From Botryllus schlosseri (taxonomy: Eukaryota): a DNA stretch of 64,000 nucleotides. The position numbers and the translations under genes are program-made. Every line of letters begins with the position of its first letter. Within the stretch, counting starts at the first letter, position 1. This document shows positions 6,860-60,400 of this stretch, piece by piece. The notes under the pieces were generated by a model, which was not told where the DNA came from, did not search any database, and saw only the letters and a list, made by a program, of their open reading frames with translations. The stretch is taken from NCBI GenBank assembly GCA_051294905.1, contig CM119372.1, positions 4,714,001 through 4,778,000 of the forward strand, in the 5' to 3' direction.

Positions 6860-7339
6860 AATAAACCGATTTTACTTTGCTGATCCTTCTGAATCTGTCG
6901 TTTTCGTAATGTCTTGTAGCTGTGTTTCCTTTGGAGGCTTTTCTTTATTAAATTATGTTTCAATAAACTTTTTGTTAGGATTTTGCTAGCCAAGAGTCTG
7001 TGAATGGGAGCAACGAGAGAGCAAGATTCTATCATCGCGGAAGATTGGATGACTGTGTGTCCTAGGTTGCGAGAGACGAAATTATCGAAGAGTCGAGCTT
7101 CAATCCATTACTGGTGCCCGCGTACGCCAGTGGGGACTCCCAGGCTTACCTCTGAGATGAGGGAAGGCAGAATTTTTCATAAAATGACTGGCTATCATGT
7201 GACGCAATTGGCGGGCTGTTGACCGCGCGTACCCGTCAACAGCGCAACTCTTGATTTTGAAATGAATCTGAGAAGCGGGTTTATTGCTTACCATACTTAT
7301 CACGCGCTTTGAGGTGTACACAATAAATTATACAATAAA
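6860..7339 (+). terminator. Candidate SETD2 polyadenylation signals
   Basis: AATAAA at 6860, 6962, 7322 and 7334, downstream of the stop codon; which is used is unknown. Confidence 0.45.
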
Positions 7340-27300: not shown

Positions 27301-30300
27301 AAATTGAAGGGTTATGGGTTTGTTTACTGTCAACTATGATACATTTTGTTTTATGCACCAGGTATTCTGGCCCACTGAAAATGTCTTGATACTGGTTTGT
27401 TTACTGTTAACAATCGTACATTGTGTGTCCTGCTTTCTCTACAAGTAATTTGTGTCGATACCAATCGAGGACTTGTAATGTTCCACTACGGTTTGGTCAT
27501 GCCTCTGTCATAACATGATTTTGGGAATGACTTAAGGGGGAGATCATGAAGTTAGCTGATCCGGGAGAATGGTGATCTTGTGATTAAAAACTGGCAATCG
27601 TGGTGCATTTTAAGCGGAGATCGTAAAGTTTGAGATAATGCTAATCGTGTGATTGAAAATTGCTAATCCGGACGCATAAAGTTGCATAAGGTTAAGCGCG
27701 ATGGTTGTCCTGAACAACGTTCCCTCTAATTTTTGACGAGTCTGCGCACACTCACCAACTCACTGCGCAGACCCTTGGACAACAGTGCGTAACGACTAAA
27801 AAAAAGGTCATCACTTCGGATTTGCGCACGTGCGCAGCTTAGAGGGAACATTGGTCCCGAAGTGGTACTGTTAATCAAACGGTGTGTGCGATATCTGTGG
27901 CGCCATAATGCGAAGAGGCGTTGTTGACTGTCGTCAATTGTCAGGTTGTTGAATGAAACGGAAAGCTGTTGATGAAAGATACTGCGACTGTAATAGGTAG
28001 AATTACCGTCGCGTAGCTAACGTGTCTGAAGTTGCAGTAAAATTTAAATTATGACATAAATGACGTGTCTACTCGCAGATCTGATGACGAGAAGATGGAG
28101 AAAGAAAGGAAGAAAAAGAAGAAGCGTAAGAAGCATCACCACCACCACCATCACCGTAGCACGATGAGCCAAAGGCGGGCTTCCGGGATCCAACTGAAGG
28201 TATGTTGCGAATATTGTGTAATGGAGCATGTTTTTGCGTTACGAGAGGACTTTTTTTCTCAAATTGTACTGGCTACTTGATAAGATTGTTAGGTCACATG
28301 ATTTAAGCCTACACACCAAATTTGGTTCAATTCCAACCAGTGGAAGCGGAGTTATTGCCATCGAAAAATTTGGATTGTCAATAAAATAGTATTCACGGCG
28401 GCCAATTCTTTAATTATTTATTATAGGTGTGCCCACCATAAATACTATTTTATTCAAATCCAAATTTTTCGACGGCAATAACTCCACTTCCACTGGTTGA
28501 AATCGAGCCAAATTTGGTGAATGTCGTTTCTATAGACGACCTAACACTTTCATGGGGTGAACAGAAAATTTTGAAAAAATTTTATTAATATTTCTATGTC
28601 ATAAATAGAAACTTTCTTCTCCTGTAGCAACGCGGCTACTGGCTGGAATCGAACCAAATTTGGTGTGTAGGCTTAAATTAGGTAACCCAGCAATTTTATC
28701 AAGTAGCCAGTACAATTTGAGAAAAAAAAGTCATTTTCGAACACCCCTATTCCTCATAAATCAAAATTTCCTCGAAATATAGTCACGGCTAAAGAATGCA
28801 AGTCAAAAAAACGATATTTAACAGGAAATGGACGAGCAAATGAAGGAAGAGCGTCGCAGGAAGCATCTGTCTGACGACGGCGACATGGAATCTCAAAGTG
28901 AGATTTTTGGTGTTTTTACTGCAGAAATGATACTGATTACTTCTCTCTCTGCAGGCCACCGTTACGACGTGCACCCCGGTATCAGGAAGCATTTGCTGCA
29001 CCGCCCGGTACAGAAACGCAGGGCCAAACCCGAGACCAGCAAAGTGCCCACCGACAGGAAGCCGCACGAGGTTAGCAAATGACGTCCGTCGGGCTTGCAG
29101 AGTTACGAACGTTCTTACTATAAGACATTGTACGACTCGATAATTCTATTTGTCTAGTTACCTGGTAAAATAATTGTACTCTAATTTGTACAATGTTTGC
29201 ATTCTTTAATTTTGATTTTAATCTAATTTCTGGTTTTTCTGAAAATGCGACAGGAGAACGGTGAAATAGTAAGAAATGCTGCGCGGACATTTTCCATTCC
29301 ATCCCATTCTCATGGTGGGATTTAATTCAATTTCCCTTTTTTTTGCTAATTCGGTCATTGTAATTCTAATCCGTATTTATCAAGCTAACATATTTCTAGT
29401 TGTCCGATCTTGCGTACGTTACCCTAACCCTAAAATCAATTATAAATACACGGACCTGCAATATGTATATTAGGGGTGTTCAAAAATGATTTTTTTTCTC
29501 AAATCATACCGGCTACTTGATAAAATTGTTAGGGTACCTAATTTAAGCCTGCACACCAAATTTGGTTCAATTCCAACCTGTAGCCGCATTGCTACAGGAG
29601 AAGAAAGTTTCTATTTATTATATAAAAAATGATAAAAAAAAATTTTCAGAATTTTCTGTTCACTCCATGAAAGTATTAGGTTGTGTATAGAAACGCTGTT
29701 CACCAAATTTGATTCAATTCCAACCAGCGGAAGCGGAGTTATTGCCGTCGAAAAATTTGGATTTGAATAAAATAGTATTTACGGTGGGCACTATAATAAA
29801 TAATTGAAGAATTGGTCACCGTAAATACTATTTTATTCAAATCCAAATTTTTTCAATGGAAATAACTCTGCTTCCACTGGTTGGTATTGAACCAAATTTG
29901 GTGAACATCGCTTCTGTAGACAACCTAACACTATCATGCGGTGAACAGAAAATTTTTAAATTTTTTTTCATTATATTTTATTAACATAAATAGAAACTTT
30001 CTTCTCCTGTAGCAATGCGGCTACTGGCTGGAATTAAACCGAATTTGGCGTGTAGGCTTGAATTAGGTAACTTAACAATTTTATCAAGTAGCCAGTACAA
30101 TTTGAGGAAAAAGGTCATTTTTGAACACCCCTAATGTGTAATTTGCTTACAACTTCTTTAAACGTTGCCCCGGCGTCCAGGTGTTCGTGGAGCTGGACGA
30201 GCTGGTGTCCGGGGAGTGGAAGGAGACGGCCCGTTGGATCAAGTTTGAGGAGGACGTGGAAGAGTCTCAGAAGTGGAGCAAGCCCAGGGTGGCGTCGCTG

Positions 30301-33300
30301 TCGTTTCACAGCCTGCTCGAGCTCCGTCGTAGTATCGAGAAAGGTACGATCTTGGTTCCTGGCTCGCCAGAATCCTGAGTTTTGTTGTGTGTCAGTCTCA
30401 CTTTCACTCACTTTTCGCCGGTCTCCAGAATACTGTTATCCAGGGTTGTAACCAAGTCGCAAGGTTCCGAGTCGCGAGTCAATCTCACTTTTATAGTTTT
30501 GACTCGAGTCAAGATGAGTCGTGTTCAATTCAACACCGAGTCAAGTCCGAGTCCAAGACAGTACATAGCGGGCCGTTTACGAGTCGTCGTGTCGTGACTC
30601 GAGTCCAAGTCATTGTGTTCACTGCTCAGTTTTGAGTTTGACTCGAGTCGAGCTATTTTACGTATTTGAAAAAATGACTCTCGTCAAGTCGATAATCGCG
30701 AAAATTTTAAACCGATTTTGCAGGAGCGGTGATCTTGGACCTGGACAACGACAATCTGACCGACATCGCCAACACGGTGGTGGAACGTATGGTCGTGTCG
30801 GACCAGATTCGCGAGGAAGACCGCGGAAGCGTGCTGCGAGTCCTACTTTCTAAGCACAAGTGCGTGCCGTCTAACGGGTTTTTATGTTTAGACGAGATGA
30901 AATACCATAAAATGTTTAGCTGGGGTTCCTAACCTTTTTCACGCCGTGGCCCCCTTTGAAAAAAACAATGACCCCCCTATTTTTCGTTATTCTCATTGAA
31001 TGGCATATTCATATTGAAACGAACCCGGATATTTTCGGCTGGCAATCGTCAGCAACTAGTAGAGAATTGGAAACGACATTTTATATCCACAATTGTATCG
31101 CAAAAGATGACGTCCCAGGCGTGATATTTCCAGTGACCTATATTTTGTGATTGTTGATGTACAATGTTCTTGTCAATTCTCTACCTCAAAGGAGCCCTTC
31201 CAAGTTATATTAATTAACCGGTAGTTAGAAGGAAAATGTAATTATCATATAAGATAACACACGATGAACATGATAGGTGATTAAATAGTTATTACAGGGC
31301 AAACATTCGACTTTTTTTTACACTAAAAAACTTTTTGTCAAAATTTTGTCTTTTAAAGAACTCATGTTGTTGAGCCGCGCAATATTGCGTGGCAATTTAA
31401 AATTTCTTTTGTGACTTCTTGGTGATGAGGCTGGGAACCCCTGTTGTACAGAATATTACTCGTTGAGTATGTAATTTGGTGTACAATGGTGGCCTATTTC
31501 CGACAAAATAACACTCTGTTTATTGCTGCTGCTATAAAAAAGCCTGAATTCTATCTATTACACTGTTTTATTACCATTCTTGGCACTTGAAATCTTTATG
31601 GAAAAACTTACTCACTATTTGGACACATTGCATTCAATATCTATGCCTTTCGGTAAATGTGAAAGCGTCACGGTAGCTTGGCTGTTTTCGAAAGGCATCT
31701 TGCTGTAATATATAATTTCCCGTTGCAAAATTGCAGCTTACCACTTGAAGTGTTGGTCTCGCTGACGTTAGCTGAATGCAATGCAGTATTATGCGGATAG
31801 GTCATCGAGTTCACGTAACCTTTCTTGCTATGCGGTGATGCATAATAGCAAAACAATTCCAGCTGGTATAACATGATTTGGTCTTTTTAATCGTGGGCTG
31901 GCATGCCCGTGTGTGATCATCAGATGACTGATGTGCATATGCTTTTTATGAAATGTGTGCCTTACTCAATTGAATATTTCCACGGTGAAATGTCAAATGA
32001 ATCTCGCACCTCTGGCACATCGGTAAGTTTGGATTTATCACATGATTCCCCCGCAAAATGATGCGTTACTATGTTATAAACACGTATATAATATCTATCT
32101 AGTTCCGGTATAATTGAGTAATAAAATTTTGAACTTGATGCAATGTGAAATGAAATTTTTTCCAGGCGTCTGGCGGCCAGATCTGGGTAATTTTCAAAGG
32201 AATATGTTACGTTCATGATTTCCTTTTTTTTCGACTTGATGTTTCATAACGTTTGCTTTTACGTTTGTTAGGAGTAGTCTCGAATTTTGAGAAGTTATTG
32301 TTTGCGTTTAACCATTGCCGTGCTTGTAACAGTTGAATTTAGACGGATCTATTAAATATGTGCCGATTGGCAAATTATAGTGAAATTGTAGGTGTGGTAG
32401 TGTCAAATTCAGCCCCTCTTGTGTCTTCAAATCGGTTGATTAGTATGTGAACAGACATTTATGGTGTCAGACTATAATAGGATTCTGAAAACTGTCTGAA
32501 ATAACGATGTATAACAACCCCTCTATACAGTCTTGATAGGTGCATATGCATCGCTCGAGCTTCTTCACATTCTAAGTTTATGTGATAAATTTTCGAGTGC
32601 ATTTGTAGTATGGTGTTATTGGGATTTGCTAGCACACTGTCATTTGTCGGTTTTATGTTGTCATATTGCTTGTAAATCGTTTCAACAGCAATGAAAAAGC
32701 ATGTAAGCATACCAGTGATTACTGTTATGTTGGTCGAGACATTGTGTTCTGTTATCCGATTTTGATTACTATCGCTTGCTTGATGCCATCACATCATTAT
32801 CCGTAGAGCGCTGTTTGTTTTAACTGCTAGTTTGCATATGCGGTAGGTAGCTGTGTTTTTCACTCGCTTTTCTTGTGTTTGCGTGATATGACTGGGTCGT
32901 TTTGCGCATGTGTGCGCGTGAAATTGACCGTTGGCTCCTTGATGCGTTGAAGTATTCCGATAATGTGCCGTGGTTATGTATATGGTAATGACTTGGTATC
33001 CTAAGAATTTGACTGCGATTCACTCGGAATAGTGTATTCTTGGATTTTATATTTTGCAGTAAATCCTTGTGTTCTTTGTGTAGGCATCTCCCCGGCGAGA
33101 AAGGCCTGTCCTACACTTTATCTCAGGCCAGCTTCTCGAACCTGTTCAGTCCGAGCTCGACTAACCTGAACAAAGAGGACGACGTCGCCGTGCGGTTTAG
33201 CGTGAGCGCCGAGTCCACAGAAACCAGACTACCGCTGCTGGATGGCAATTCTTCTGACGTGGAGGTAATTCAATTTGTTCCACAATCAGCGGTAGGATAT

Positions 33301-36300
33301 GCCCTCCTTGTTTTGAACTGGGCGATATCAAGAGAGGTTTATTCATGCTCTTCTAGACCAGCGCTTCCCAACCTTTTCCAGTAGGCCGACACGACCCACA
33401 ATGACCAAACGAATTAGGTACTAGCGTAATAAAGCAAAGGGGATAGGCACTGATTTTTCAATCAGTAGATTATGCATATGTGTTGTGTATCTGCTGTAGT
33501 TCTGTGTTTTCTTTGTTAAGGCTGGCAGGAGTGTGTCCATGAGCCGAGTCGCCTCGACTGTCGCCGCTAAGGATTTGAAAATAATGAAGAAAATACCTCA
33601 GGACGCAGAGGCCAGCGCCGTGTTAGTGGGTGAGTCATGGCTTCGTTATTTTTTGGAATTCGCTCCGAGTTTCAATCATGTGATCACGCAGCGAACTGAT
33701 TTGTTTTGGCGCGTTGAGTTCATTCGGTGATCAATCTCAGGATATGCAAAATAGACTTTCACGGGCCGCTGCGTATGTGTTGCCTTGAAACGGAAGATCG
33801 AACCGAGCAATATGTAACTGGACTTACATTCATCTCAGCAGACGTTTAACGTCCAGAAATTGGGTTAAATCTGTCAGTGATACATGCTGTATGCTCAATA
33901 TTCGTGTTTGTTCAACTAAGAAATGGTCTCACCTACCCCTGGCATGTTATTATTCAATTTAATTAGCCCAAACAACTAGGTTTTCTCCCTCCGTATCCAT
34001 TACCCATATTTACGCTGCATGAGTTGTATTTAAATGCTCAATCTGCCTTCAGCCCTTCAGTCAAGGTTTGCTGTTTTCAAATTCATATTGGTAAGATATG
34101 AAGCTGAGGGTATAATTAATATATGTGCTGAGCTGAAATACAGGCATCTGTTTTATCACTTTGGTGGCTGATTTCATGCCGAGAAGATTATTCAAATTCC
34201 TTGTGATGGAGTATAGTATATTAATATATGTGCTTACAAACTTGCTCAACATACCTATCCTAATATAGTTCAATGTCGTATCAACTCCAAATTCACATTA
34301 CAATGCGTATAGAGGATTCACACTCTTGATCCTATAATATATCTTGATACTTGTGTAGGTTTTCGTGTGACTTTACTGCACCATAACCAAAAAGTTGAAA
34401 CTCGATTGTGATACAAACTGTATATGACACAAACTATCTAAGTTACGAAATAAAAGTAGACCACATTACATTATGATTCTGTCCACAATTGGAGCCTGAC
34501 CACGCTCTAATATGCCCGTTTTTAACTGACGACTCCCCTGGCCAGATGTGAACAATTGATTAATTCATGGGGTTGACGGTGAAATTTAAAATTTTTCCAA
34601 ATAATTTTTCATAATAAATTCAAAATTTTCAAACTCCTGTGCGTTCACATATACCAGTTAGGATCGAGCCAAATTTGGTGTACATCGTATTTTAGGCAAC
34701 CTAACAATTTAATCAGTGAAAACAGGTTATTTTGGAACAACACTAGTCCTCATAATTTATGCTATTCAGAATCGAATCACTAGGAGATTCGATTTTTCCC
34801 AGCCCTTGTCGCGATGAAGCACACTGTAATTTGTAAAGTAACCACTTTCGATCTGCTATTTTCAAGCATGCGGTGTTCCGACTAAATCCACGTCTTGAAA
34901 CTACTTGAGTTCTTCTCAGATCTCGATTGGCTCATTGCATTGCAGTTGCGTTGACTTCTATCTACTTTCGAGTAGAAGTTTACACCGTTACTGCAACAAC
35001 AAGACTACCTTGACCACTTATTTGCAGGATCGCTCGAGTATCTGGAGCAACCGACGTTGGCGTTTGTCCGTCTGGCTGCCGGCGTCGACTTGGACAATGT
35101 AGTCGCGCTGCCCATTCCCGTCCGGTTTATTTTCGTGTTGCTGGGTCCCACGTGCGACGATTTCGATTATCACGAAATCGGAAGGTCCATTTCCACGCTC
35201 ATGGCCGACGAGGTACGTACGGCTGATGATGGAACGAAAGATTTTGCTTGTTAAACGCTCTGCGTTACTTAACGTGTCGGCCTCTTCGTGTTTTTTGGAA
35301 ATTATGGCTTGCGTACTGGTGGTTCAAGCAAAGGAATTGGAACAGGACGTAGTGTATTTTTGTCCTTTACGTTTTCTGCAGCATATACGCCGACTCATGA
35401 TATACATACACACGATCTGTGCGTATGCATACCACGAGTGCATGATGTGCATATGCTGCTGGACAATAGGGGTCTTCAAAAATGACCTTTTTTCTCAAAT
35501 TGTACTGGCTATTTGATAAGATTGTTAAGTTACCTAATTTAAACCTACGCACCAAATTTGGTTCAATTCCAGCCAGTAGCCGCATTGCTACAGGAGAACA
35601 AAGTTTTCATTTATTATGTATCAAAATTTTCTGTTCGCCCCATGAAAGTGTTAGGCTGTCTATAAAAACGATATTCACCTAATTTGGCTCAATTCCAACC
35701 AGTGGAAGCAGAGTTATTGCAGTCAAAAAATTTGGATTATCAATAAAATAGTATTCACGGTGGCCAATTCTCTAACTATTTATTATAGGTGTGACCACCG
35801 TAAATACTATTTTATTCAAATCCAAAATATTTCGATAGCAATAATTCCGCTTCCACTGGTTGGAATTGAACCAAATTTGGTGAACATCGTTTCTATAGAC
35901 AACCTAACACTTTCACAGGGTGAACAGAAAATTTTGAAATTTTTGTTAATTTTTCGCGAATTCAGTAATTCCAATCCAATTTGGAAACAACTGTATAGAT
36001 GCAATTCTAATTCTAATGTAATTCAAAAAAGCTGAAAATTTTCTAGTTATCCAACTCCACCTTGAAGTAGTTTGGAACATTGCCACTTCTACTTGCAACT
36101 GAGTAGAAATTTACGGCATTACTTCGAATTGAGTAGCGATGCTGATTGCTGTTGTGTTGAAAAGTATGTTGGTATTGAAATCTACCTGAATGGTGACTGA
36201 CACTCGTCAGGGGTAACCGTCGGCAACTAGTAGAGATTTGGAAAGACCATTACGTACACCCTTGACGAATGTGTTTTCCAATTCTCTACTAGTTGCTGAC

Positions 36301-39300: not shown

Positions 39301-42300
39301 TGAAATCTTTGAAATTTAATTAAGTCAGAGCTCTTCTAATGAGCATGAGTGTGGCAAATGCCTATAGCCAGAAATTAGATTAGAATAAAAATTCTAGCAT
39401 AGTGACATTTCACGAATTAGATTGCAGACATTTTGTTCTAATTACTTTAGTCGAGTGCTTTTCAACGTTTCTGAGCACCGTCCGCATTTTTTCCGCAAAA
39501 ATCTGGTTTTGCAGGTTTTCGAAGTATTTTCACACTGCAACATTTTGTTGGCGGACCCCGGACCCCAGTTTAAGAAATTATTTTGTGCGGTTAATAAACG
39601 GCCACAGATTGTGGTAGCTGACAAGAGTCTTGTGAATAAAGTGTATGTCGTTAGGTCTTCGCTACTGATCCACGGCCGTTACTACCCTGGTTTATATTGG
39701 TGACTTTCATGTCTGTAACGAGTTTTAACGTTTCACGTTACAGACGTATCAGCAGCATCCTCTCATGCTCACCTATTGCTTCGACGAGAATCTAACAGAC
39801 TACGGCAACGTAACCGCCAACCTCACCCAATCATTTGCGAACAGCACCTTGCCAGACAAAGACGGTCAGTATTGTAATGCTTTTTACTCTGGTGTTATAT
39901 TGTTCAATATAATTATATATTCATCGGAACTTGGGCAAACTACTGGAATTTCAAAATACGCAGCTAGAACTTTAACTACTCACTGATCAAAACTCACAAC
40001 GGTAACTGCTCAAAAAACCTGTAATTAGTTGACCGTTAAGCCTGATATTGATGTTGAAATAAATAGATTTCAAAAGAACTTTATATATCAACAATCGTAT
40101 CACCAAATCTGGTATTCATATTGAAATGAGCATAATTCAACGGAACTTTGTACATCAACAGTTGTATCACCAAATAAGGCATAAAAATTTGAATAATAGG
40201 ACGCGCAGATGACTTCAGCTCGATCAGCTGCATGTTATCCAATTGTATATTGAAGTTCTGTACCTCCAAGGGTCTCATAATCGTGACTATCTCATGTTTC
40301 TCCGACAGTGAACATGGACCAACCCAACACTGCGCTGCTTTCGACCATACTGATGTTCGGCACTTACATGATTGCGATGCAGTTGAGATCTTTCAAGTAA
40401 TTCGATGACTTTGGATTTGTGTTTGAGTTTGTAAAAGTATCTTTATTTTATGTCTATCAGGAATAGTAAATTTCTGCGTAGTTCCGTGAGGAGAACGATC
40501 GGAGATTTCGGAGTGCCGATCGCTATCGCAATCATGGTTCTTCTCGATTATTTAGTGAAGGAAACTTATACACAGGTTTGATTTTAAATTTTCTTTTTGC
40601 TACTCCGCGATTTGAATTGTGAGGCGACATTTTTTGTGCCATCCGAATTTTTTAATAATGCAGTCCACTATTGGTGCGAATATGTTGCTACGTGCGATGG
40701 AATATCAAAGATCGATCTATCCTGGTGAATGCTGAATTCTACTTTTAGCTCACGATTTTTTTTTCAATTGACACTTTTGACACACAAACGGAATTTATCG
40801 GCTGATATGATGAGTTGGCGTCCAATAGTAATGAAATTTTGACTGTTCACAGGAAATGTTTCTCGAATTGGTGCCGTGAATGGTGAAATGTTGTTGTGAA
40901 TGCATTTGACTCCTCATAAGAGGGCGTAAGAGTGACAGTGTTGCTAATCAGGTAGAGGTAATGCTATGAATTTCTATTCAATCATGCCATGCTCAAATAC
41001 TTGACATCCGAAAACTACTCGAAGTCCACGACAGGAATTTATGGCTACTTACCAGGGTTGTAACCAAGTCACTAGGTTTCAAGTCACAAGTCAATCTCAC
41101 TTTTATAGTCTTAACAGTTTCTGGGCCTATTTTCCAGGAATCACGACCGATAGACGAAATACCAATAATGAAGTGGTCACTTTACTGTTCTTCGAAGTTA
41201 CAATGAAATATCTGTCTTGGCCGTCCTAGTGTCGAGTCATATGACTTGGTTCGAGTCGTGCACAATGACTGGAGTACAAGCCGAGTCAATACACAGATTG
41301 ACTCGAATCGAGACATTTTACGCGTTTGAAAAAATGACTCAATCCAAGTCGAGTCACCAAAAAATCGCGACTCGAGTCATTACAACCCTGCTCAAAACTG
41401 ACGGATTTTTCATTTTTGCAGAAACTCAATATTCCTGACGGTTTTTCGCCGACCAACGCCTCCGCCCGGGGCTGGCTCATTGACCCGCTCGGCACGGAGA
41501 GCGACCCGATGCCGGTGTGGATGATATTCGCCTCGTGCCTGCCCGCTTTCCTCGTGTTCATTTTGATTTTCATGGAGTCGCACATCACCGAGTATGTTCA
41601 CGTAGATTGTTGCTGGGAAAATTTTCAGACTGTTCTTATTTGATTAGAATTAGAGTTATAGCTACTCAGTTTTTTTTTAAATTTGATCGCAGTTAAAGTT
41701 GCTGAATAGGAAAAAACACGTGTCCGACCGTCTTCTATTTTGCAGGTTAATCATCAGCAACAAAGACAGATGTCTGAAGAAAGGCACCGGCTTTCATCTC
41801 AACACTGTCGTGCTCGGGATCGTCAACGCCGTCGTTTCTGTCTTTGGCCTGCCTTGGGTCTGCGCCGCCACCATCAGATCTGTCACGCATACGAACAGGT
41901 TTCCGTCTTTTTCTTATTGTCGTGAAGTGGGTGTTGCGACTCGTGCTCCGATTACTTCAATACGGTAATTCTTAACCGTTGCCAACCTGGCTGACCCCAA
42001 ATTTCGGCTTGGTCACAAAAACTGCCGTCTACATCCCGTATGAATCTGACCGTACCGTGTAATCTGTAATAGTGGTCAAGCCTATTCAATTTCGTGTGCT
42101 CGCTGGTCTTAAATTCCAAATTCTATGTGTACAACGTCCTGAAAGTATCCCGACTAACTGCTAGAGATGGATGGGTCGTGTTTGTGGAGTTCGGAACAGA
42201 CCTGGATCTTTTTTCCGTCTCCAATGTCAGGATCGATCCAACTAATACTACTAGAACTGATACCACTGCTGATGCGTCTAGAAACACCTACAGCTTAACA

Positions 42301-46774: not shown

Positions 46775-47866
46775 CTACTCCGCAAAACGACCAGGATCAA
46801 ATTCCGATATGTCTATTGTGGCTTTGCCACTAACTATCAAATCTGCAAGGATTTTACCAGTCATTGGCGCATTCAAAATGCCCCAACATGAATGTCCCGC
46901 TGCCACAAATACCCCATCACAATCGGACACTCTTCCGATGATTGGCATACCATCCTCGGTCAGCGGAAGATAACATGCTTGCTCTACATTGACGGTGCCA
47001 CTTTTCAGAGAAGTAGACATTTCTGAGCAAAGATCTTTCAATGCTTTGCAGCATCCTTCACTGGGGTTTACCATTCCTGGTGGTTCTAGGTTTTCAGATC
47101 TCAAGGGATCTTGCACGATTCCACAAACAAACGCCTCTCCGTCAGGTCTTGGGTAGATATCTGCAGAGGATTCCCCGTATGAAATAAACACTGCGTCTGG
47201 AGTTAATGGCGTCTTTGGTTTCACTGTAATAGAGTGTGCTTTCTGACCATAGATTGATCGGGGTAGAGATGGAAACCACTGTCTTGCTATGCCTGTCCAG
47301 GGGCCCATCGCTAAAACTACGTTTTTTGTGCTAAGTTCTTTTCCTCCATTTATTGTTATTGTCTTCAATTTGCTCTTCGGGGTGTATTTTATATTAACGA
47401 CCTCAGTTTGAGTCATAAATTCGACTCCCATCTCCAAGCATACTTGTTGAAGTTTTCTGCAGAATTGGTAAGGGTGCAGCTGCGCGTTTGTGGTCACATC
47501 GCCGATTTTCGACGGGCGTTGTATGGTACTTCCGTCGAGCCAAGCGGGGAGTTTAGCGTGACAAGACTTGCTGTATGACGAACTTTTTTGCAAGGACACG
47601 GAATGGGTTGTTAGTCGGCGAAACCCATATTGATTTTCTCCGTCCAGCTCCTTCGCTAGGGCACAGTGCAGGTCGTAGCTTAGGATTGCGAGTTCGTTGA
47701 TCGACGTGCCCGAATTCCAATCTCGAGCTAAAAATCCGCCAGCTCTGCCTGAAGCGGCATTAGCTAGTTCGTTTTTTTCAAGGACGGTTGACCTAATGCC
47801 AGCTTTCGCAAGGTAATATGCCGTACAAGTCCCGATAATTCCACCGCCACAGATTATGACTTCCAT
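46775..47866 (-). CDS. Intronless FAD-dependent oxidoreductase, DAO family, TDA3/C1F5.03c-like (363 aa)
   Basis: Single ORF from the first in-frame ATG at 47866 to TAG at 46775. Rossmann motif VIICGGGIIG, plus ASGRAGGFLARDW, AQLHPYQF, VVLAMGPWTG, YPRPDGEAFVCG, QACYLPLTEDGMPIIG and AAGHSCWGILNAPMTG. Confidence 0.88.
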   Translation of the reverse strand: MEVIICGGGIIGTCTAYYLAKAGIRSTVLEKNELANAASGRAGGFLARDWNSGTSINELAILSYDLHCALAKELDGENQYGFRRLTTHSVSLQKSSSYSKSCHAKLPAWLDGSTIQRPSKIGDVTTNAQLHPYQFCRKLQQVCLEMGVEFMTQTEVVNIKYTPKSKLKTITINGGKELSTKNVVLAMGPWTGIARQWFPSLPRSIYGQKAHSITVKPKTPLTPDAVFISYGESSADIYPRPDGEAFVCGIVQDPLRSENLEPPGMVNPSEGCCKALKDLCSEMSTSLKSGTVNVEQACYLPLTEDGMPIIGRVSDCDGVFVAAGHSCWGILNAPMTGKILADLIVSGKATIDISEFDPGRFAE

Positions 47867-49099
47867 ATCGCTTGGTTTGCGTTCAGCTACTTGAAGCAAC
47901 CATATCCTGTCATACCAGCCGCGACGCTATAATATTTGATGTCACCGCAGCCAGCATCTGTTCTGTATTTGCAAAATGTCCATTATCGTATTTGATTTAG
48001 CGGGAAGCACCCAGATGTCAGTGCCGGGGAGAATATATTTGTTATACAAAGTATCGATGTATCACGCGTGTAGTCAATGATAGCCAATAGTTTCTGGTAA
48101 AAAATGCTTTCAATAAAAATCTGTGACTTGACTTAGCCATTAGGACATGGCCTTCATAGAGCCATCCGTTTTTTTTTTAAAGGTCAACTGCATCTCAAAA
48201 ATGACTTTGCCTTATTTCGTACATTATGTGGTTAGAAATATGAATAAAATAATGAAAATTGAAAATACCTTATAGTTTTCAAGTAATTTAAATTATAAAT
48301 CGAAAAGTCAAAAAACGGAAACGAAACCATTCAGCCATGAAATGACGTCATGTAACTGACACAGCAGAAGTCTTGATACCTGGTTTACCACTGTGATTCT
48401 GCCAGAAAATGCTTACGTCATAATTCCGAAATCGCTGAGTCATTGTTGTCGGAATGATTCACTTGAGCTAAGATCAAATATTATAACTGGAAAAACAATT
48501 TCGCGACAAACTTGGAGTGCAAACGAACTGAAACACACGAGTTTTATCAATAAATGACGCAAACGGTATCATCAATACAATATGTCATCGAAACTTGGAA
48601 GGAGTGCTTCATTTTACAACCGCCAGGTAGTACTTATGGCATCTAAATTTTCAGCCGTTACGTAATCTACGCAGGCGGACCTACTACGATTCTCGCCTGT
48701 AGCCGAAGCATCAGAGGTTAATTTGTGTTCCTTCCCCCATGTTTGACTGTTTCTTACGGCGTCAAGACGCCCGAAGAAAGACTCCACAAAAGATTATATG
48801 TGATATCGAGCAGAAAAAAAAAACAAATAATAACGTTTAACGAAGACAGCCTATCCCACACTGTTACATCGGCCAATTGGCTTTAGTCGTTGTTTGATTA
48901 AAATACCATAATAGGTAAATGCAACACCTTCTTGCCGGTTACCTACATCGCATTACACACTATGTGTCTTGAGCACATCAGAATATAAATGATTACGATT
49001 ATTGCGATTAACGTCATGTTCGTGTTTGGTATAGGTCGACTGTAATGCCGCAATTTATGAGTTATTCAATAAACAATAAAAACAAAAAAATGCAATAGC

Positions 49100-51952
49100 G
49101 TTGCTTCTGCTTCGGACATTTTATATATTCGCAAAACTATTTCATCGTATGGTTTTACGTAGCCTACTTTTTGAAGATCAAAACGCACGATTTTATAGTT
49201 TCAATCGACAATTAGGACACCCGAATTGTAACGGCGTGCCCTCTGCTTCGGATGTGTTACATATTGGGATAAGTATTAAATCATGATGTTAATGACAATA
49301 TCAAAAAGTTGGGAAATTGCGTACTTTTTTATGATCAAAATGCATGATTTTGCGTTAAATGCGACTTTTCGTCCAATTCGATTTTTGGGCAGTTTCAATC
49401 GACAATTAGAACGCCCAAAATGTAACGGCGTGCCCTCTGTTTCGGATATGTTATATATTTCGATAAGTATTACATCATGATATTAACGATAATATCAAAA
49501 AGTTGAGAAATTGTGTACTTTTTCAAGATCAAAATGCACGATTTTGCGTCAAATACGACTTTTCGTCCAATTCGATTTTCGGTCTATTTCAATCAACTAT
49601 CAGGACACCCTAAATGTAACGGCGTGCCCTCTGCTTCGGATATGGTATATATTTCGATAAGTATTAAATCATGGTATTAACGATAATATCAAAAAGTTGA
49701 GAAATTGTGTACTTTTTCAAGATCAAAATGCACGATTTTGCGTCAAATACGACTTTTCGTCCAATTCGATTTTCGGTCTATTTCAATCAACTATCAGGAC
49801 ACCCTAAATGTAACGGCGTGCCCTCTGCTTCGGATATGGTATATATTTCGATAAGTATTACATCATGGTATTAACGATAATATCAAAAAGTTGAGAAATT
49901 GCGTAATTTTTCAAGATCAAAATGCACGATTTTGCGTCAATTACTACTTTTCGTACAATTCGATTTTCGGTCTATTTCAATCAACGATTAGGACACCCTA
50001 AATGTAACGGCGTGCCCTCTGCTTCGGATATCGTATATATTTCGATAAGTATTACATCATAGTATTAACGATAATATCAAAAAGTTGGGAAATTGTGTAC
50101 TTTTTGAGGATCAAAATGCACAATTTTGCGTCAAATACGACTTTTCGTCCAATTCGATTTTTGGGCAGTTTCAATCGACAATTAGAACGCCCAAAATGTA
50201 ACAGCGTGCCCTCTGCTTCGGATATGGTATATATTTCGATAAGTATTACATCATGATATTAACGATAATATCAAAAAGTTGAGAAATTGCGTACTTTTTC
50301 AAGATCAAAATGCACGATTTTTCGTCAAATACGACTTTTCGTCCAATTCGATTTTCGGTCTATTTCAATCAACGATTAGGACACCCTAAATGTAACGGCG
50401 TGCCCTCTGCTTCGGATATGTTATATATTTCGATAAGTATTACATCATGATATTAACGATAATATCAAAAAGTTGAGAAATTGTGTACTTTTTCAAGATC
50501 AAAATGCACGATTTTGCGTCAAATACGACTTTTCGTCCAATTCGATTTTCGGTCTATTTCAATCAACTATCAGGACACCCTAAATGTAACGGCGTGCCCT
50601 CTGCTTCGGATATGGTATATATTTCGATAAGTATTAAATCATGGTATTAACGATAATATCAAAAAGTTGAGAAATTGTGTACTTTTTCAAGATCAAAATG
50701 CACGATTTTGCGTCAAATACGACTTTTCGTCCAATTCGATTTTCGGTCTATTTCAATCAACTATCAGGACACCCTAAATGTAACGGCGTGCCCTCTGCTT
50801 CGGATATGGTATATATTTCGATAAGTATTACATCATGGTATTAACGATAATATCAAAAAGTTGAGAAATTGCGTAATTTTTCAAGATCAAAATGCACGAT
50901 TTTGCGTCAATTACGACTTTTCGTACAATTCGATTTTCGGTCTATTTCAATCAACGATTAGGACACCCTAAATGTAACGGCGTGCCCTCTGCTTCGGATA
51001 TCGTATATATTTCGATAAGTATTACATCATAGTATTAACGATAATATCAAAAAGTTGAGAAATTGCGTACTTTTTCAAGATCAAAATGCACGATTTTGCG
51101 TCAAATACGACTTTTCGTCCAATTCGATTTTCGGTCTATTTCAATCAACGATTAGGACACCCTAAATGTAACGGCGTGCCCTCTGCTTCGGATATGGTAT
51201 ATATCTGGATAGGTATTACATCATGATATTAACGATAATATCAAAAAGTTGAGAAATTGCGTACTTTTTCAAGATCAAAATGCACGATTTTGCGTCAAAT
51301 ACGACTTTTCGTCCAATTCGATTTTCGGTCTATTTCAATCAACGATTAGGACACCCTAAATGTAACGGCGTGCCCTCTGCTTCGGATATGGTATATATCT
51401 GGATAGGTATTACATCATGATATTAACGATAATATCAAAGAGTTGAGAAATTGTGTACTTTTTCAAGATCAAAATGCACGATTTTGCGTCAATTACGACT
51501 TTTCGTCCAATTCGATTTTCGGTCTATTTCAATCAACGATTAGGACACCCTAAATGTAACGGCGTGCCGTCTGCTTCGGATATGGTATATATCTGGATAG
51601 GTATTACATCATGATTTTAACGATAATATCAAAAAGTTGAGAAATTGTGTAATTTTTCAAGATCAAAATGCACGATTTTGCGTCAATTACGACTTTTCGT
51701 ACAATTCGATTTTCGGTCTATTTCAATCAACGATTAGGACACCCTAAATGTAACGGCGTGCCCTCTGCTTCGGATATGGTATATATATTTCGATAAGTAT
51801 TACATCATAGTATTAACGATAATATCAAAAAGTTGAGAAATTGTGTACTTTTTGAGGATCAAAATGCACGATTTTGCGTCAAATACGACTTTTCGTCCAA
51901 TTCGATTTTCGGTCAGTTTCAATCGACAATTAGGACACTCAAAATGAAACGC
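49100..51952 (+). repeat. Tandem array of a 194-bp unit (~14.5 copies)
   Basis: Marker GGCGTGCC (one copy AGCGTGCC) recurs every 194 bp from 49233 to 51755 (14 copies). Confidence 0.95.
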
Positions 51953-52236
51953 AAAGCTTTGAGATATTAGACATTTTTGGTGTTGGTAATTGGTTGATCT
52001 TCAATATGTTCAGTCTTTGTTTGCTTGAGGTGTTCATGGTGTTTGTCAGCCACTATGGTCATTTACACAAGGCCATTTTTTCATATTTATTTCATATATA
52101 TTAACTGCCGATTTGTAGCACGGCTAGTATAGAATTTTTATAGAGCACCGCTTACACTGATGAGATGGCGAGGAGGGGCCTTCATAAACCTTCAACACTA
52201 AGGTAGGAATTCTTGAGTCAACCTCGGTAGCTAACG

Positions 52237-52516
52237 ACTATATTGGCTGTCACTTGAATTCACGATCAATGATTGGTATTTTGCGGCGTAGACACGAAGA
52301 TTATTAGGGGCCCTTGCGCCACAATTACGTTAGTTGATGAACCAGCTCGTGGTGTCATTTGAACTTGTGAACTATATGAAGAAGAAGCTGCAAAAATTAA
52401 CCAAGTGCGAGGTCGTTTCTTTTTCACGAAAATGTCCGATTAAGCAGCCAGATCTTGAGAGCTGCGGCGTTTGCGTTGTCGCGGATCGGGTTTGTTTCGG
52501 ACATTTTGCATTTTGA
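52237..52516 (+). pseudogene. Degraded Ulp1/C48-like cysteine protease fragment
   Basis: Reads IHDQ*LVFCGVDTK...ATITLVD (HW..VD..D-like, CAA TGA one change each from His-Trp), then after a frameshift CPIKQPDLESCGVCVV (Q-x5-C catalytic motif). Confidence 0.5.
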
Positions 52517-52836
52517 AGGAATGATATTTTTCGCAATGGCACTGAAAAATCAGGACTACAATTCAATATCAAAAGACTTTGGGTTTTCATTGGATTAATT
52601 GGACTGATATGAATGAATTCAAATAATTCGTTTTTTCTCTAAATACGTCCATCTCTAGAATCCTATATCTACATCGAGTATGCTTTACAAAATACACGTT
52701 TCGAAATTACATTTTCAATTTGCATATTAATCCGTCTGAAACTCATTGATTCGAGGGGAGCTGCTGACAAAACTTAGCGACGAAGAAAGCAGGACAGGAC
52801 ATAGCATGGTAAAACAGAAATTGACCAGGAATCGAA

Positions 52837-53975
52837 TTATCGTTAATATCATGATGTAATACTTATCGAAATATATAATATATCAGCAGCAGAGGGCACG
52901 CCGTTACATTTTGGGAGTCCTAATAGTTGATTGAAATAGACCGAAAATCGAATTGTACGAAAAGTCGTAATTGACGCAAAATCGTGCATTTTGATCTTGA
53001 AAAAGTACGCAATTTCTCAACTTTTTGATATTATCGTTAATATCATGATGTAATACTTATCGAAATATATAATATATCAGCAGCAGAGGGCACGCTGTTA
53101 CATTTTGGGAGTCCTAATAGTTGATTGAAATAGACCGAAAATCGAATTGGACGAAAAGTCGTAATTGACGCAAAATCGTGCATTTTGATCTTGAAAAAGT
53201 ACGCAATTTCTCAACTTTTTGATATTATCGTTAATATCTTGATGTAATACCTATCCAGATATATACCATATCCGAAGCAAAGGGCACGCCGTTACATTTA
53301 GGGTGTCCTAATCGTTGATTGAAATAGACCGAAAATCGAATTGGACGAAAAGTCGTATTTGACTCAAAATCGTGCATTTTGATCTTGAAAAAGTACACAA
53401 TTTCTCATATTTTTGATATTATCGTTAATATCATGATGTAATACCTATCCAGATATATACCATATCCGAAGCAGAGGGCACGCCGTTACATTTAGGGTGT
53501 CCTAATCGTTGATTGAAATAGACCGAAAATCGAATTGGACGAAAAGTCGTAATTGACGCAAAATCGTGCATTTTGATCTTAAAAAAGTACGCAATTTCTC
53601 AACTTTTTGATATTATCGTTAATATCTTGATGTAATACCTATCCAGATATATACCATATCCGAAGCAGAGGGCACGCCGTTACATTTTGGGTGTTTTAAT
53701 CGTTGATTGAAATAGACCGAAAATCGAATTGGACGAAAAGTCGTATTTGACGCAAAATTGTGCATTTTGATCCTCAAAAAGTACACAATTTCTCAACTTT
53801 TTTGATATTATCGATAATACCATAATGTAATACTATCCAGATATATAACATATTCAAAGCAGAGGGCACGCCGTTATATTTTAGGTGTCCTAATTGTCGA
53901 TCGAAACTGACCGAAAATCCAATTGGACGAAAAGTCGTAGTTGACGCAAAATCATGCGTTTTGATCTTAAAAAAG
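52837..53975 (-). repeat. Inverted tandem array of the same 194-bp unit (~6 copies)
   Basis: Marker GGGCACGC at 52894, 53088, 53282, 53476, 53670 and 53864. Confidence 0.95.
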
Positions 53976-54845
53976 TAGGCGTCGTAAAACCACGATGAAA
54001 TAGTTTTCCGAATATATAAAATGTTCGAAGCAGAACAAACGCCGTTGCTTTTTTGTTCTAACTGTTTATTGAATAATTCATAAAATACTGTATAACTGTC
54101 GACCTATACTAAACAAGAACATGACGTGAATCGCAATAATCGTAAGCATGTGTTTTCTGATGTGCTCACGACATAGTGTGCAATGCGATGCAGGTGATCG
54201 GCAGGAAGATGTTGCATTTACCTATTATGGCATTTTAATCAAAAACGACTTGAGCCAATTGGCCGATATAGCCTAACAGTGTTGGATAGGCTGTCTTCCT
54301 TAAATATTATTATTTTTACTTGTTTTCTCCTCGATATCACGTATAATCATTTGTAGAATCTGTTTCCGGGCCTCTCGCCGCCTCGAGAAATAGTCACACA
54401 TGGGGGAAGGAACACAAATTAACCTCTGAGTCTTCGGCTACAGGCGAGAATCGAAATAGGTCCGCCTGCGTAGATTACGTAACGACTGAGAATTTAGATG
54501 CCATAAGTACTACCTGGCGGTTGTAAAATGAAGCACTCCTTCAAGTTTCGATTATATATTGTATTGATCATACCGTTTGCGCCATTTATTGATAAAACTC
54601 GTGTGTTTCAGTTCGTTTGCACCCCAAATTTGTCGCGAAATTGTTTTTCCGGTTCTAATATTTGATTATAGCACAGGTGAATCATTTCGACAACAATGAC
54701 TCAGCGATATCTGAAATATGACGTAAGCATTTTCTGGCAGAATCACAGTGGTCCTGGTTTGCATAAGGTTATCCCTGTTGCTGTGGATTTGAGTATTTCA
54801 ATGTGATCATGAAAGCTGTTAAGAAGATGAGGAATGGAGGTAGAC

Positions 54846-55199
54846 ATGAGGAATGGAGGTAGACGTTATGTCGCGTATGACTGCTACAATACGCAATATG
54901 CGGTACTCAAAGTGTCCTTACATCGCTTTCACAAGCCATATGCCGTCAGCCGACCGGACGCCTATAGCTGATTAGCTGAACAGTGCGGAACACCGTGAAG
55001 ACCAAAATTGCGCACAGAATCATATTCATGCGCGGATCACTTCCAACCATCTTGCTTCAATGAAGTATCCGAGATACACAAGCTAGTTGACTACCGAACA
55101 CAGGCAACTATCGCATGCACTCCCACTCCCGTCCACACTTTATTTTCACGGAGGAATACCGGTACTCCTCTAAAGCTACGTACTGTCCGAAATCGGTAA
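54846..55199 (+). pseudogene. THAP zinc-finger remnant (N-terminus of Kolobok transposase)
   Basis: MRNGGRRYVAYDC...VSLHRF...S*LAEQCGTP*RPK...SCADHFQPSCF...PVHTLF, with two TGA where THAP has Trp and a GTAAGT donor at 55196. Confidence 0.75.
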
Positions 55200-56286
55200 G
55201 TGAAAATGTATTGAGTCAGCTAGTACTATAAAACTGTAACTAACCGTTTCTATTAGTATTGACTGTGGTAGTGACGAAAGTAGTTATTGTTTGCACTCAA
55301 GTATACATGTAGAATTAAGTACGGTACCGTATGTGCCTTAAAAAACTTTTGAAGTGGAAGTATTCTAAAATTAAGCCACTTCACTCATTGAATGAAGTAG
55401 TGGCATTAGTTACTGAAAAGGGAGTATGTAACCAGCTGACTGCATGACCTGATGGTTACATCGCTGACCTCATTTTATGCCAATATGGAATAGTTGTCTC
55501 GTGCACACCAAAGATTCCACTGACTGCACACAGGTGTGACGCCGAAAACCGCCTTGGCACACCAAAGATATTGCGCTAAACGTACCGGGATTCCAACCTG
55601 GCAGTTTTATGGACTCCGTGGATAATTGAAAAGGACGCGACTCGAGCCAAAACTATAGAAGTGAGATGACTTGTGACTCGGAAATTTGCCACTTGGCTAC
55701 AACCCTGATAAAATCATAGACTGATGAAGCTGTAGCCTATGAGTCAGGAAGCCTACTTATCATGTAAGCAGCAAAAGCAACACGATAATACCGATGATCC
55801 ATTACTATATCGTAATCTATGTCCCTCTCAAGATGTTGGCAGCTCAGCGGAGATGAGAAAGTACCAGTATCACCATAACTGTCGTAAAGTACTCTGTTAA
55901 CTGTTCAGAACAACCCTTATAAGATTTCACCATATTCACAAGCCATACGCATCATTGTAGGATGCAGTTTGCAATCCTTTATTTGATGATACTTGAGAAG
56001 GAATACTGCCTTCAATCTGACTGTGTTATAACACCTTGTGATATTTTTTTGCCTTCTCTAGATTACTGCAATGAAGAAGTCAATGCACTCGTCAAAACAC
56101 GACCAGGAACGGCAGAGTTCATCAATTTTATTTGAGTAGCGGCATCGTCAAAATTAGCTCAGATGATGATATTGCTGGACACAAAACCCGATATGTTTCT
56201 CTTCCTGATACAGTAGCAGTGTTGATGGATTAGTTTGTTGCATGTACTATTTTCAATAAAACTATTTTCATGCGCAATGAAGCATT

Positions 56287-56691
56287 TCAAAATTGAAATC
56301 CTTTGAAACTACTGGATGTGACTTTTGATCGGATGGCAGTAACGACATGCGCAGGCAGGATTTTCCGTGTTGTTTTCTGCAGAATCCCCATAGCAATCGG
56401 ACGAAATTCCTGTGCAGTGTTTCTCAGCTTCCTGAAAAGTGTAGTGTTAGGAAATTACTTGGCAACGGACTCGCCGTTTCATCTTAATGAGGCTCATTCA
56501 CTCATGCATCAAACTAGATGTTATAATTCTGTGGCCATAATCCTGTTCTTATCTATAGTAAGACATCTTCAATGCATCACCATCCCAACAAGCTGATTGA
56601 AATCATGGTAATGCTGTGATTCACTCTTATTCTGTCAGCACAAACTCTCCCTGATAGTTGGCATTTAAGCTGGCAACCTCCATATTAACAC
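56287..56691 (-). pseudogene. KolX-like (P2X7 C-terminal ballast-like Cys domain) remnant
   Basis: Minus strand with stops and frameshifts: C*YGGCQL/MPTIRESLC*Q, ITALP*FQSACW, then KLRNTA/RNFVRLLWG/ILQKTTRKILPAHVVTAIRSKVTSSSFKGFQF*. Confidence 0.7.
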
Positions 56692-57429
56692 CTGTGATTG
56701 ATTGTAGCAAGATTCCTAATTGAAACGAAGTAATCCACCAAATTATACATAGGCCGCTACCATACTGCATTTCATTTAGCTTTTACGCTGATCACACTAC
56801 AGATTACCAACCGACCCATCATACGAAGCTGATAGGGGTTCCACTGATGTGGGATCGAGCGAATCACCACCTGAAGCGCGTCCGCATTTCATACTTACAT
56901 TCAAGTACTCAGATTCAGTTTTAACACCATACAAGCGAGTCCTTCGCCATAACTAACTCAAATATTCGCCCAGCGTCTTGGCGAACACACAATCACACAT
57001 ATCCCCTGTGGTGAGAATAGAGATGTCATGTACTTGACGTCACAATGCACATTCTGTTTTCTCTGTAAACATGCCAATATTGGGACTTTCAGTCAAAATT
57101 ACGGCAATTTCCGATTGAGTAGAAACACGGAAAGTCGGTAATTTAGGTATAAAATAAAGTTCTGAACATGATTCCGCAAAGTTGTCTGTAGAGATGCAGT
57201 TGACCTTTAAATCTGGATGTACTTCAGAGGCCAATGGTTTGGTGACTCCTTGTATTCAGCAAAGCCACTCAACTATGACTGTGGTTTTGAGTATTGAGTA
57301 AACAAGGTATGTTTGCGAATGGACAAGAAAGAACCATAAGTAATAGATCAAGCGGGCGGTGGCCTAATTCGAGGTACATTTAGCAATTACTTGAAACTTA
57401 GTCGTCGAGGTCGTCATTCTTTCCATATC

Positions 57430-60400
57430 ATGGAGTCCAATCGACATGATGAGCTACACAATCAAAACGTGATTACCACGGGTATGCCAAAAACAACAGC
57501 TGCTTCTGAGCCGAAGAAAACTAGTAATGACCAAGTTGATGGCCGTCCAAAGCCAAAGCCTAGAAGTCATAGCAAATGTAAGCTTATCCTCCGTTTCGAA
57601 AGATATCTTGTCGTAACCAAGTTACATATTTCTCAGCACAGCGGAAAAGGAAAGATGAAGGGTGCTTTGGAAGCTTCATGGGTATGCTGGCCGATATGAT
57701 GCTGACAACAGACGAGGACAAAATTGAATATTTAAAAAGTTACAATTGTATGCCTCCGCCTATATTTATCTTGGTGGTCTCTATCACAGAGGTTGGTGGT
57801 AATTCTCACCACTGATGTGACAAAATCATAATGAATGAATCCTCTTCTGTAAGTTGGTGGTTTTCATCTACTTCAGTGCCATTGTGGAAACAAAACAATG
57901 GATCACAATGAACGAAGCTTTACTGGACAACGTTCTGGTGTATGACCCATATTTGAGAGAGCAAGTGTGGAGATTTATATCTTACATGCTCCTACATGCA
58001 GGGTAAGTTTGCATGTTTGTTTTATTAAAATAATGATAACAAATAGAGTTTGTGTCACAGAATAGAACATATCATGGGAAATGTATTGCTGCAGTTACTT
58101 GTCGGTGTTCCGCTTGAAATGGTGCATAAAGGATACCGAGTTTGTATTGTGTATATGTCCGGGGTTCTTGCAGGTGGGTTCTTATTTTGTGCCAAAGTCT
58201 TATTTTCAGGATATTGCAGGCAGAGTAGGACGAATAGCAAATTTTCAGCTTTTCCAAAGTAGAATTGTTCTAATTCTAATTATTGTAGTTAGTTTTTACC
58301 AAATTACATTGGAATTGATGAATTGTAAAAGACTTGGAAATTGAATTAGATTCCAAATTAGAAAGAAATGCAACTAAGAGCCGAATGGAATTAACAGTTT
58401 CGTAGAATGGCCTGCTACATGCAAAGAAATACGCAATGATATTAAATTCTACATTGATGTGCGTAGGCTACATTTGTATTACTGAAATTTTTGAATGAGC
58501 TACAACGTGAATTACGAAGGCTACTCGCACAGGACGTATTCTCGTCACTTCGGTTGATATGACGCAAAATACTCCGTGAGTCGACTTCGTTGTGATTCTC
58601 TATGGTGTCACAATCAGTACGAGACGTGAATTGGCCATTGTCTACCGGCGCTCCCATTGTTAGCAACAATGCCGATTTCGAACTTTGAAGGCGATTTTCG
58701 GGGGGTTCCAGTGCTCAGACCAGATTTTGAGTTATATTTTCGAAATCACTCTGAAAGTAGCGTTCGATTGATGCCGGTTGAATTCAAATTTGCGCTTTTG
58801 TCGCCAGCGCTAAGATTACCAACTAAAGTTCAGTTCATATCAAATCAGCCAGTTAGTAGCCATGATTTTGAGAATGTCTGCACACCGAGCTTCGCTGGTA
58901 TCGTACTATACAGGTTCTCCTGTTGCATTTTCAGAAAAATTAGATTTCAATGAAAATTATATCATAGGAAAACTTTAAAAATATAATCAGACTTAGATTG
59001 CCGGCATTTCGCTATTATTAGATGACTACAATTGTCTAGTTGTCCAAGTTACCTCTAAAACTCCATCCTTGATTTCCAACATCCTGTGCTGGGCTTGAGA
59101 GCGAATTTTGGAAAATTCTGATTGAAATTGTGTGTTCCACTCCACGCCGGGAGTAATTCAATGGATTAGGCTACAATGTTGTACGTTTTACAGTTGTAAT
59201 GACTTATCATTCTGTATTAGCTGTAATTCAAATTTATTTCAGGATCGTTGGCAAGCTCCATTTTTGATCCGTTCATGTACCTTGTCGGCGCCTCTGGCGG
59301 GGTTTATGCATTGCTGGGTGGATATCTCTCTAACATTTTGATGGTGAGGGGCACTTAAAAGTTAGCGTATTAGATTGTACATAAACATGACAAATTCTAA
59401 AGAAATGTGCTTTTGTTTCAATGGTCTGACTCTCACACAATCAGTGTGTGCACACTGTCTGAAACGTCCGATCCGTTTTGTGTACTTGGTAGTGTTGGGA
59501 TTACTCAAATTGACTCTTTCTTGACTTGACATAGTGTTTCAGAAATGTGGATTGACTCGTAACCTAATAGCGACATTTTCCAGTAATTCGACTTGACTTA
59601 GACTTATCTTGACTCGAATCAAATGTGCAGTGACTTGTTCCCAACACTAGTACTTTTTGTGTGCTATTTAAAATGTGCCTTGTATTGCAGAACTGGTCAC
59701 GAATGGCAATGAACGGGCTCCATCTATTTCTCCTCCTTTTTTTAGGTATGGTACGCATTAGCTTTTCGTGCTTGCTTTTATGTTAATGTGTGTATAATAT
59801 TCACTGCAGTCCTTGGCGATTTTGCCTTCTCTCTGTATCGACGATTCGTTATTTACCCGGACGGCGGTGGCCAGCAAGTATCATTTGTTGCCCATATAGC
59901 GGGCGGACTCGCAGGTAACTGAGGCTTGAATGCTTCTAGCTTTTGTGGAATATATCAGAAGTGGTGCCGTGCCGATCAGTTCTGTTATTTCGAGGCGGAG
60001 ATGTTTTCAATAATAAAATGAGGCCTCGGCGCCTTTGTTATGTCAGAAATTCGATACTATTGACGGGTGAAAAATCAGAACTCTGGGGTTTTCTCCATTG
60101 ATTTTGGCGAAAATAAGAAAAATAGTAGATGAGAGGTAATAAATAGACTGAAAATAAGGTCACGTCTTGAAATGTGAAAGAAAACTAGCTTAAATTCAAT
60201 TCAAAAGTATGTACACGATGTCCATAAGGTGAATTAGTCTTGAAGTCTAGATTACAATGTTAACATATTCAGTGTTCTGGATTTTACTACTATGAAATGT
60301 CGTCATCATTGTCGTTAAGAAATATGAGCTCTTGTAAAAGGCACCATAATAACCGCCTGTAATGGGTCATGCCATTTCCATAATCCAATTAGTCATTAGT

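Follow-up and report, generated by a model that had tools for sequence, protein, structure and literature searches.

A 9026-bp element enclosed between two TTAA tetranucleotides in Botryllus schlosseri DNA appears to be a non-autonomous, internally deleted derivative of a Kol0-type Kolobok transposon, which would have been copied in trans and later loaded with a foldback element; we put the probability of this reading at roughly 0.77. The element lies in a 64,000-nucleotide stretch (GenBank assembly GCA_051294905.1, contig CM119372.1, positions 4,714,001 to 4,778,000), hereafter the window, in which all coordinates are given. It is a well-bounded nested transposon of known kinds, new as a member of its family and not as a system. 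Its boundaries are as follows.

48177..48180: left TTAA target-site duplication (TSD), with a T run just before it
48181..48196, plus strand: left 16-bp terminal inverted repeat (TIR) of the Kolobok-type host, AGGTCAACTGCATCTC, which begins with AG
48343..48362, plus strand: subterminal motif with the core TGACGTCA, mirrored at 57023-57042
57191..57206, minus strand: right 16-bp TIR
57207..57210: right TTAA

According to PMC9587614, Kolobok elements are defined by a TTAA TSD and by 5'-RR..YY-3' termini with TIRs, and it is the RR..YY signature that separates them from piggyBac. The element studied here has TTAA on both sides, AG..CT termini and exact TIRs. An earlier reading of the window, made from the sequence only, had assigned it Kolobok-type ends and TSD, and these match the definition in PMC9587614 and PMC6004289. 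The same reading had placed exact 16-bp TIRs inside TTAA 9026 bp apart and had estimated that about 2.65 kb would be left once the nested element and one copy of its 8-bp duplication, CCTGGTTT, were taken out; its coordinates and arithmetic are correct, the computed remainder being 2652 bp. Exact copies of TTAA plus TIR occur in the window only at these two places, and an exact 20-nt inverted pair at any position was found in 1 of 20 shuffled windows. The two subterminal motifs are identical at 16 of 20 positions and lie at near-symmetric distances from the ends, a score that none of 300 shuffles reached, and the 180 bp inward of the TIRs are weakly similar between the ends (7 of 500 shuffles scored as high). 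When metagenomes were scanned with the 20-nt TTAA+TIR pattern, the single match fell inside a bacterial open reading frame that did not otherwise resemble the window, and it is attributed to chance.

The 2652-bp remainder retains traces of two convergent genes.

54810..55195, plus strand: decayed THAP exon, with two in-frame stops in 54849-55195
55196..56061, plus strand: 866-bp intron, GT..AG
56062..56290, plus strand: second-exon remnant, with no Pfam match and too short for a DDE core
56287..56700, minus strand: KolX / P2X7-ballast-like remnant, with motifs in two frames and many stops

In the THAP frame, three of the four C2CH residues are kept, the first Cys being now Tyr, and both CADHF and the C-terminal PT..LF box are retained; the majority of sibling contigs (described below) read YGC at 54880. 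PMC6004289 lists C2CH, P-W-F and an AVPTIF box as the marks of the Kolobok THAP domain. One contig of the public run X16, with a depth of 98.6, skips 55196-56061 precisely at a canonical donor and acceptor, and family members are therefore probably transcribed and spliced, although the kind of run that X16 represents is not on record. In the present copy the spliced frame ends at a stop four codons past the joint. From the acceptor to the end of the convergent gene there are 228 bp, whereas the rows consulted in Table 1 of PMC6004289 give Kolobok coding sequences of about 2.1-2.4 kb, which implies that the catalytic core has been deleted. A Pfam search of the six frames gave no match besides THAP, and neither the DDE domain nor H2CH was encountered. 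Thus, the THAP-DDE transposase of the sequence-only reading is reduced to a THAP remnant, and the outer element is not an autonomous Kolobok member.

On the opposite strand, the remnants CxYGGC, MPT..ESLC*, RNFVRLLWGF and RKILPAHVVTAIRS..FKGF are split by frameshifts and stops, and they occur in the order that PMC7016195 gives for the three P2X7 ballast motifs. A C-terminal pattern derived from Data S6 of PMC9587614 has its single match in the window here and matched none of 60 shuffles, with the qualification that the pattern was picked after the sequence had been seen. By position and motif, the minus-strand remnant is likely to be KolX. A Pfam match to Fam20C (E=0.02) among 13 frames was rejected as spurious.

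Sibling copies were surveyed through contigs of four of 20 listed public runs (X1, X12, X15 and X16) placed on 54050-58600, a span that takes in the right nest junction only; the figures rest on 32 of 3729 pieces, 24 of 834 loose ends, 40 of 429 variant rows and 15 of 51 joints. Runs X7-X11, which had small word shares, were left out of the contig comparison. Runs carrying five different organism labels, as well as seawater metagenomes, matched the window stretch. Contigs resembling the body of the element at 98-99.8% reached a depth of 327 in X1, compared with 9.7-14 on the flank (23-34 times), and of 523-668 in X12, compared with 64.7 on the flank (8-10 times). From the bin 57090-57241 to the bin 57242-57393 the depth drops from 3810 to 9.7 in X1 and from 73530 to 85.6 in X12. 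Contig depth does not equal true copy number, and it points to roughly 10-30 copies of the family, from which the host copy differs by 0.2-1.2%. Among the 24 of 834 loose ends, none provided flank letters at 57207 from other copies. The depth over the right subterminal part, 56938-57206, is far above that of the body (21,000-135,000 vs about 670 in X12; 1,600-7,200 vs about 330 in X1), and this excess suggests a far more abundant short element having these same ends.

Two records bear on the structure of the locus. X15 record 15 matches 54753-55478 and continues with 114 letters unlike the foldback arm; the match breaks off precisely where the right 8-bp duplication begins. X1 record 4, a single-copy contig of 4583 nt with a depth of 9.7, matches 57206-57990 only, differing there at a single site, and its upstream part consists of 3798 other letters. 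That the match reaches one base into the element is expected from the T run of the left flank. The insertion is probably polymorphic at this TTAA. The allele state of the flank is taken from X1, since the X15 cover of the flank is near nil (zero in 6 bins) and the X12 flank contig begins at 57249. The earlier suggestion that the composite had moved in trans as a unit is supported, as regards movement in trans, by the multi-copy family of a gene-dead host at about 99% identity and by the apparently empty site in another haplotype; movement as a unit is weighed below.

The passenger is a foldback element with the following parts.

48379..48386: left 8-bp duplication
48387..54752: nested non-coding foldback, 6366 bp
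49199..51951, plus strand: 194-bp tandem array of the left arm, 14.2 copies
51952..52835: unique middle, with no Pfam match
52836..53977, minus strand: 194-bp tandem array of the right arm, inverted, 5.9 copies
54753..54760: right 8-bp duplication

The foldback arms measure 1.9 and 3.6 kb. Their outer parts differ in 83 of 792 aligned columns (10.5%), yet the terminal 36 bp are identical between the arms (p about 0.02). Of 12 listed sites, 11 show the left arm in agreement with the contigs and the right arm departing from them, and the closest relatives of the right arm among the pieces listed are 5-6% different. CpG hypermutation was considered as the source of the divergence and is not dominant, as just 9 of 42 transitions stand in CpG context; a 9-bp duplication was likewise rejected, as the ninth base differs. 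Judged by its 8-bp duplication and long arms, the foldback is probably Mutator-like: PMC6446971 ascribes to Mutator/Foldback elements long TIRs and a TSD of 8-11 bp, and the nested element has both, the superfamily being inferred here from TSD length alone. Rehavkus is listed there with a 9-bp TSD, vs the 8 bp found here. No match, and thus no MULE-type transposase, was obtained with Pfam in any of the six frames of the middle. In layout, the element resembles Tetris of Drosophila virilis (PMC4079207): both have long TIRs in which the outer domain, about 0.8 kb in length, is unique, tandem repeats of about 200 bp further inside, a middle without coding capacity and a duplication of 8 bp. Unlike Tetris, its arms are unequal (14.2 vs 5.9 units), and the comparison concerns layout, not sequence. 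Positions 49088-49149, in the unique outer arm, are 69-74% like the 194-bp unit, which suggests that the array may have been derived from the foldback arm itself.

Compared with the Kol0 lineage of PMC9587614 (type Kolobok-1_XT), the outer element shares TTAA, RR..YY, short TIRs, a THAP-like remnant at the 5' end and probably a KolX-type second gene. It differs in the lack of DDE/H2CH, in the decay of both genes, in its 2.5-kb unit and in the 6.4-kb foldback passenger. It also resembles the Xenopus T2-MITEs/XKol (MITE, miniature inverted-repeat transposable element), which are non-autonomous and TTAA-flanked with AG termini and 16-bp terminal sequences, and which, according to PMC6004289, are presumed to be moved by Kolobok transposases. 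Here, however, the terminus reads AGGTC vs AGGRR in T2, the element is bigger than a MITE, and gene remnants and a spliced intron are kept. Kolobok ends enclosing a composite interior recall KolobokP, an architecture that PMC9587614 describes as having long terminal direct repeats together with a His-Me nuclease; neither was seen here. KolobokP was rejected, as no long terminal direct repeats were present among the 20 listed of at least 60 repeat families, and the structure is one of nesting instead.

Taken together, these data are consistent with a history in which a two-gene, Kol0-type Kolobok would first have lost its catalytic core through an internal deletion that spared the ends, a THAP-like exon together with its intron, and a decayed, probably KolX-type gene. 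A transposase acting in trans, presumably supplied by a helper, would then have spread this basic unit of about 2.5 kb to roughly 10-30 places. The present copy would later have acquired the foldback; it is set apart from most siblings by an insert of 132 bp and a tandem duplication of 19 bp. It would now occupy a TTAA with divergent host genes on either side, at a site that is probably polymorphic.

Several results weigh against this assignment. The THAP frame begins 256-292 bp from the left end of the remainder (ATGs at 54810 and 54846), where the sequence-only reading had expected a THAP start at about 300 bp, but its Pfam score (E=0.0013, 19.9 bits) is under the cut-off of 23.9; its similarity to THAP1 in the PDB is weak (E=0.19), and none of 14 candidates in a search for THAP relatives was confirmed. 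For the convergent KolX-like gene that had been placed near the right end, the motifs are present and any database match is missing: no homology was found in Pfam, in the PDB or with phmmer over 1.84 billion proteins, run on representatives, word searches gave 0 of 42 and 0 of 1 candidates, and when the three vertebrate ballast motifs from the literature were chained with frameshifts allowed, the score was 40, a value reached by 103 of 178 window blocks and thus at the level of chance. In addition, X15 record 15 behaves as a foldback-free copy would and X1 record 4 is most simply an empty site, both calls being made from the position of the breakpoint.

The relative ages of the parts were estimated from X1. 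Over 54761-57010, outside the insert, 14 of 18 listed rows, those in which at least 95% of the depth differed from this copy, were counted; 55273, 55970, 55995 and 56729 were dropped. The host copy thus differs from the X1 family majority at no fewer than 14 of 2099 sites (at least 0.67%), while the flank differs from X1 at 1 of 1328 (0.08%; Fisher p=0.014); the flank differs from X12 at 11 of 1089. The guest looks older than the host, and the host older than the insertion site. If the foldback is older than the host, it must have arrived already diverged, which the 36 identical terminal bases fit. If the host is older than the site, it would seem to have aged elsewhere and jumped here lately, and the foldback could have come along.

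How the non-autonomous Kolobok copy came to carry its passenger can accordingly be pictured in two ways. One, to which we give about an even chance, is that a foldback-free copy landed here and that a diverged foldback, remobilised in trans, entered it afterwards, the composite never having moved. A foldback-free form is apparently present among the contigs in X15 record 15, the identical arm termini would fit a remobilised old foldback, and it is the left arm, not the right, that agrees with the contigs. If the locus is as young as 0.08% implies, however, little time would have been available for a second insertion.

The other is that the foldback entered a donor Kolobok elsewhere, and that the resulting 9-kb composite later reached this TTAA as one unit by cut and paste, or was cleanly excised from it in the other haplotype. 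Co-mobilised nested DNA transposons are exemplified by the double-Ds of maize and by the FB-flanked TE elements of Drosophila. This course of events is plausible, if somewhat short of an even chance. The order of ages is opposite to that of nesting in place, and 9 kb falls within the 6.8-13.9 kb range of full-length Xenopus Kolobok in Table 5 of PMC6004289. At the same time, none of the 32 listed pieces (of 3729) spans the foldback-Kolobok junction, X15 record 15 passes the junction unbroken without the foldback, and a recent jump of the host gives no date for the foldback. The low divergence of the flank is itself open to other explanations: X1 may be the sample from which the window was assembled, contig simplification may mask both alleles and rare subfamilies, a count of at most one difference in the flank has a chance of 0.01-0.10 at 1% heterozygosity, and the flank, being genic, may be under constraint. 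The sequence-only reading had treated junctions unique to this locus as grounds against co-mobilisation; a cut-and-paste jump would, however, leave its junctions single-copy, so that their uniqueness could not refute it. Only tentatively can the locus be described as a gene-dead Kolobok carrier whose 9-kb hairpin package, with an old foldback inside, was very recently pasted into or cut from a two-way promoter, resulting in a presence/absence polymorphism.

It is very unlikely that the outer element belongs to another TTAA-targeting type, such as one related to piggyBac, or that its likeness to THAP and KolX arose by chance: KolX has no significant match, and KolX-like genes do occur in some piggyBac families according to PMC9587614, but the 5'-AG..CT-3' termini carry the RR..YY signature, the THAP remnant is in the expected place and spliced, and the post hoc C-terminal motif matches only once in the window.

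As found, the Kolobok derivative is an ordinary nested copy that records a recently active non-autonomous family. A move of the whole composite, if it took place, would represent a natural case of the machinery of one superfamily carrying an element of another, would indicate that Kolobok tolerates multi-kilobase hairpin cargo, and would provide a natural allele pair for the effect of a 9-kb insert on a divergent pair of genes. The sequence of the empty allele would reveal whether the TTAA that Kolobok leaves is clean. With its inverted ages and its probable presence/absence state in a divergent promoter, the case stands slightly above routine.

The neighbouring genes and the minor inserts of the element are listed below.

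46775..47866, minus strand: intact single-exon DAO-family oxidoreductase, 363 aa (PF01266, E=2e-49)
57430..58190, plus strand: 5' part of a rhomboid protease gene (PF01694, E=1.1e-05)
54827..54864, plus strand: 19-bp tandem duplication, across which the contig X12 record 6 has 19 gaps
55473..55604: high-depth repeat inserted between TTTTATG copies; the 132 bp comprise 125 bp and one of these 7-bp repeats
55612..55707: terminal fragment of a small CAGGG-ended element, 78-81% like three other window stretches

The ATG of the DAO-family gene is 311 bp from the left TTAA and the putative ATG of the rhomboid gene, at 57430, is 220 bp from the right TTAA; without the element, the two start codons would stand about 534 bp apart, head-to-head. 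The insertion thus splits what is predicted to be a compact divergent promoter region, and it may affect expression.

The joint 55472>55605 in X1, X12 and X16 (three of the four runs) shows that the 132-bp insert is missing from many copies; in X15 the contigs break at both of its edges, a hint that copies with and without it are both present in that run. The 125-bp repeat within 55473-55604 is covered by 48-73 contigs per listed site in X1 and contains an internal 13-bp direct repeat; a B-box-like stretch was noticed by eye on its minus strand. As a tRNA-derived short interspersed element the insert had no support from ARAGORN or Rfam, and it was left unclassified. Both the 132-bp insert and the CAGGG fragment lie within the 866-bp intron; this intron, the 19-bp duplication and the lack of space for a DDE core had escaped the sequence-only reading. 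In X1 record 1, which stands further off (about 89% alike), just 97 letters separate 55218 from 56060, which indicates that the intron has lengthened by insertions.

The CAGGG end fragment is present in sibling contigs too. It belongs to a group of small elements, located at 41049-41389, 30436-30692, 488-724 and 55612-55707, that end in CAGGG and contain GACTCGAGTC repeats; from the pattern of the terminus they may be hAT-like. Another high-depth repeat, with several replaced variants among the contigs, occupies 58250-58400 in a rhomboid intron, and an abundant, dispersed palindromic repeat family with units of 130-300 bp that are 60-92% alike occurs at 12411-13548, 28248-28751, 29460-30137 and 35463-36056.

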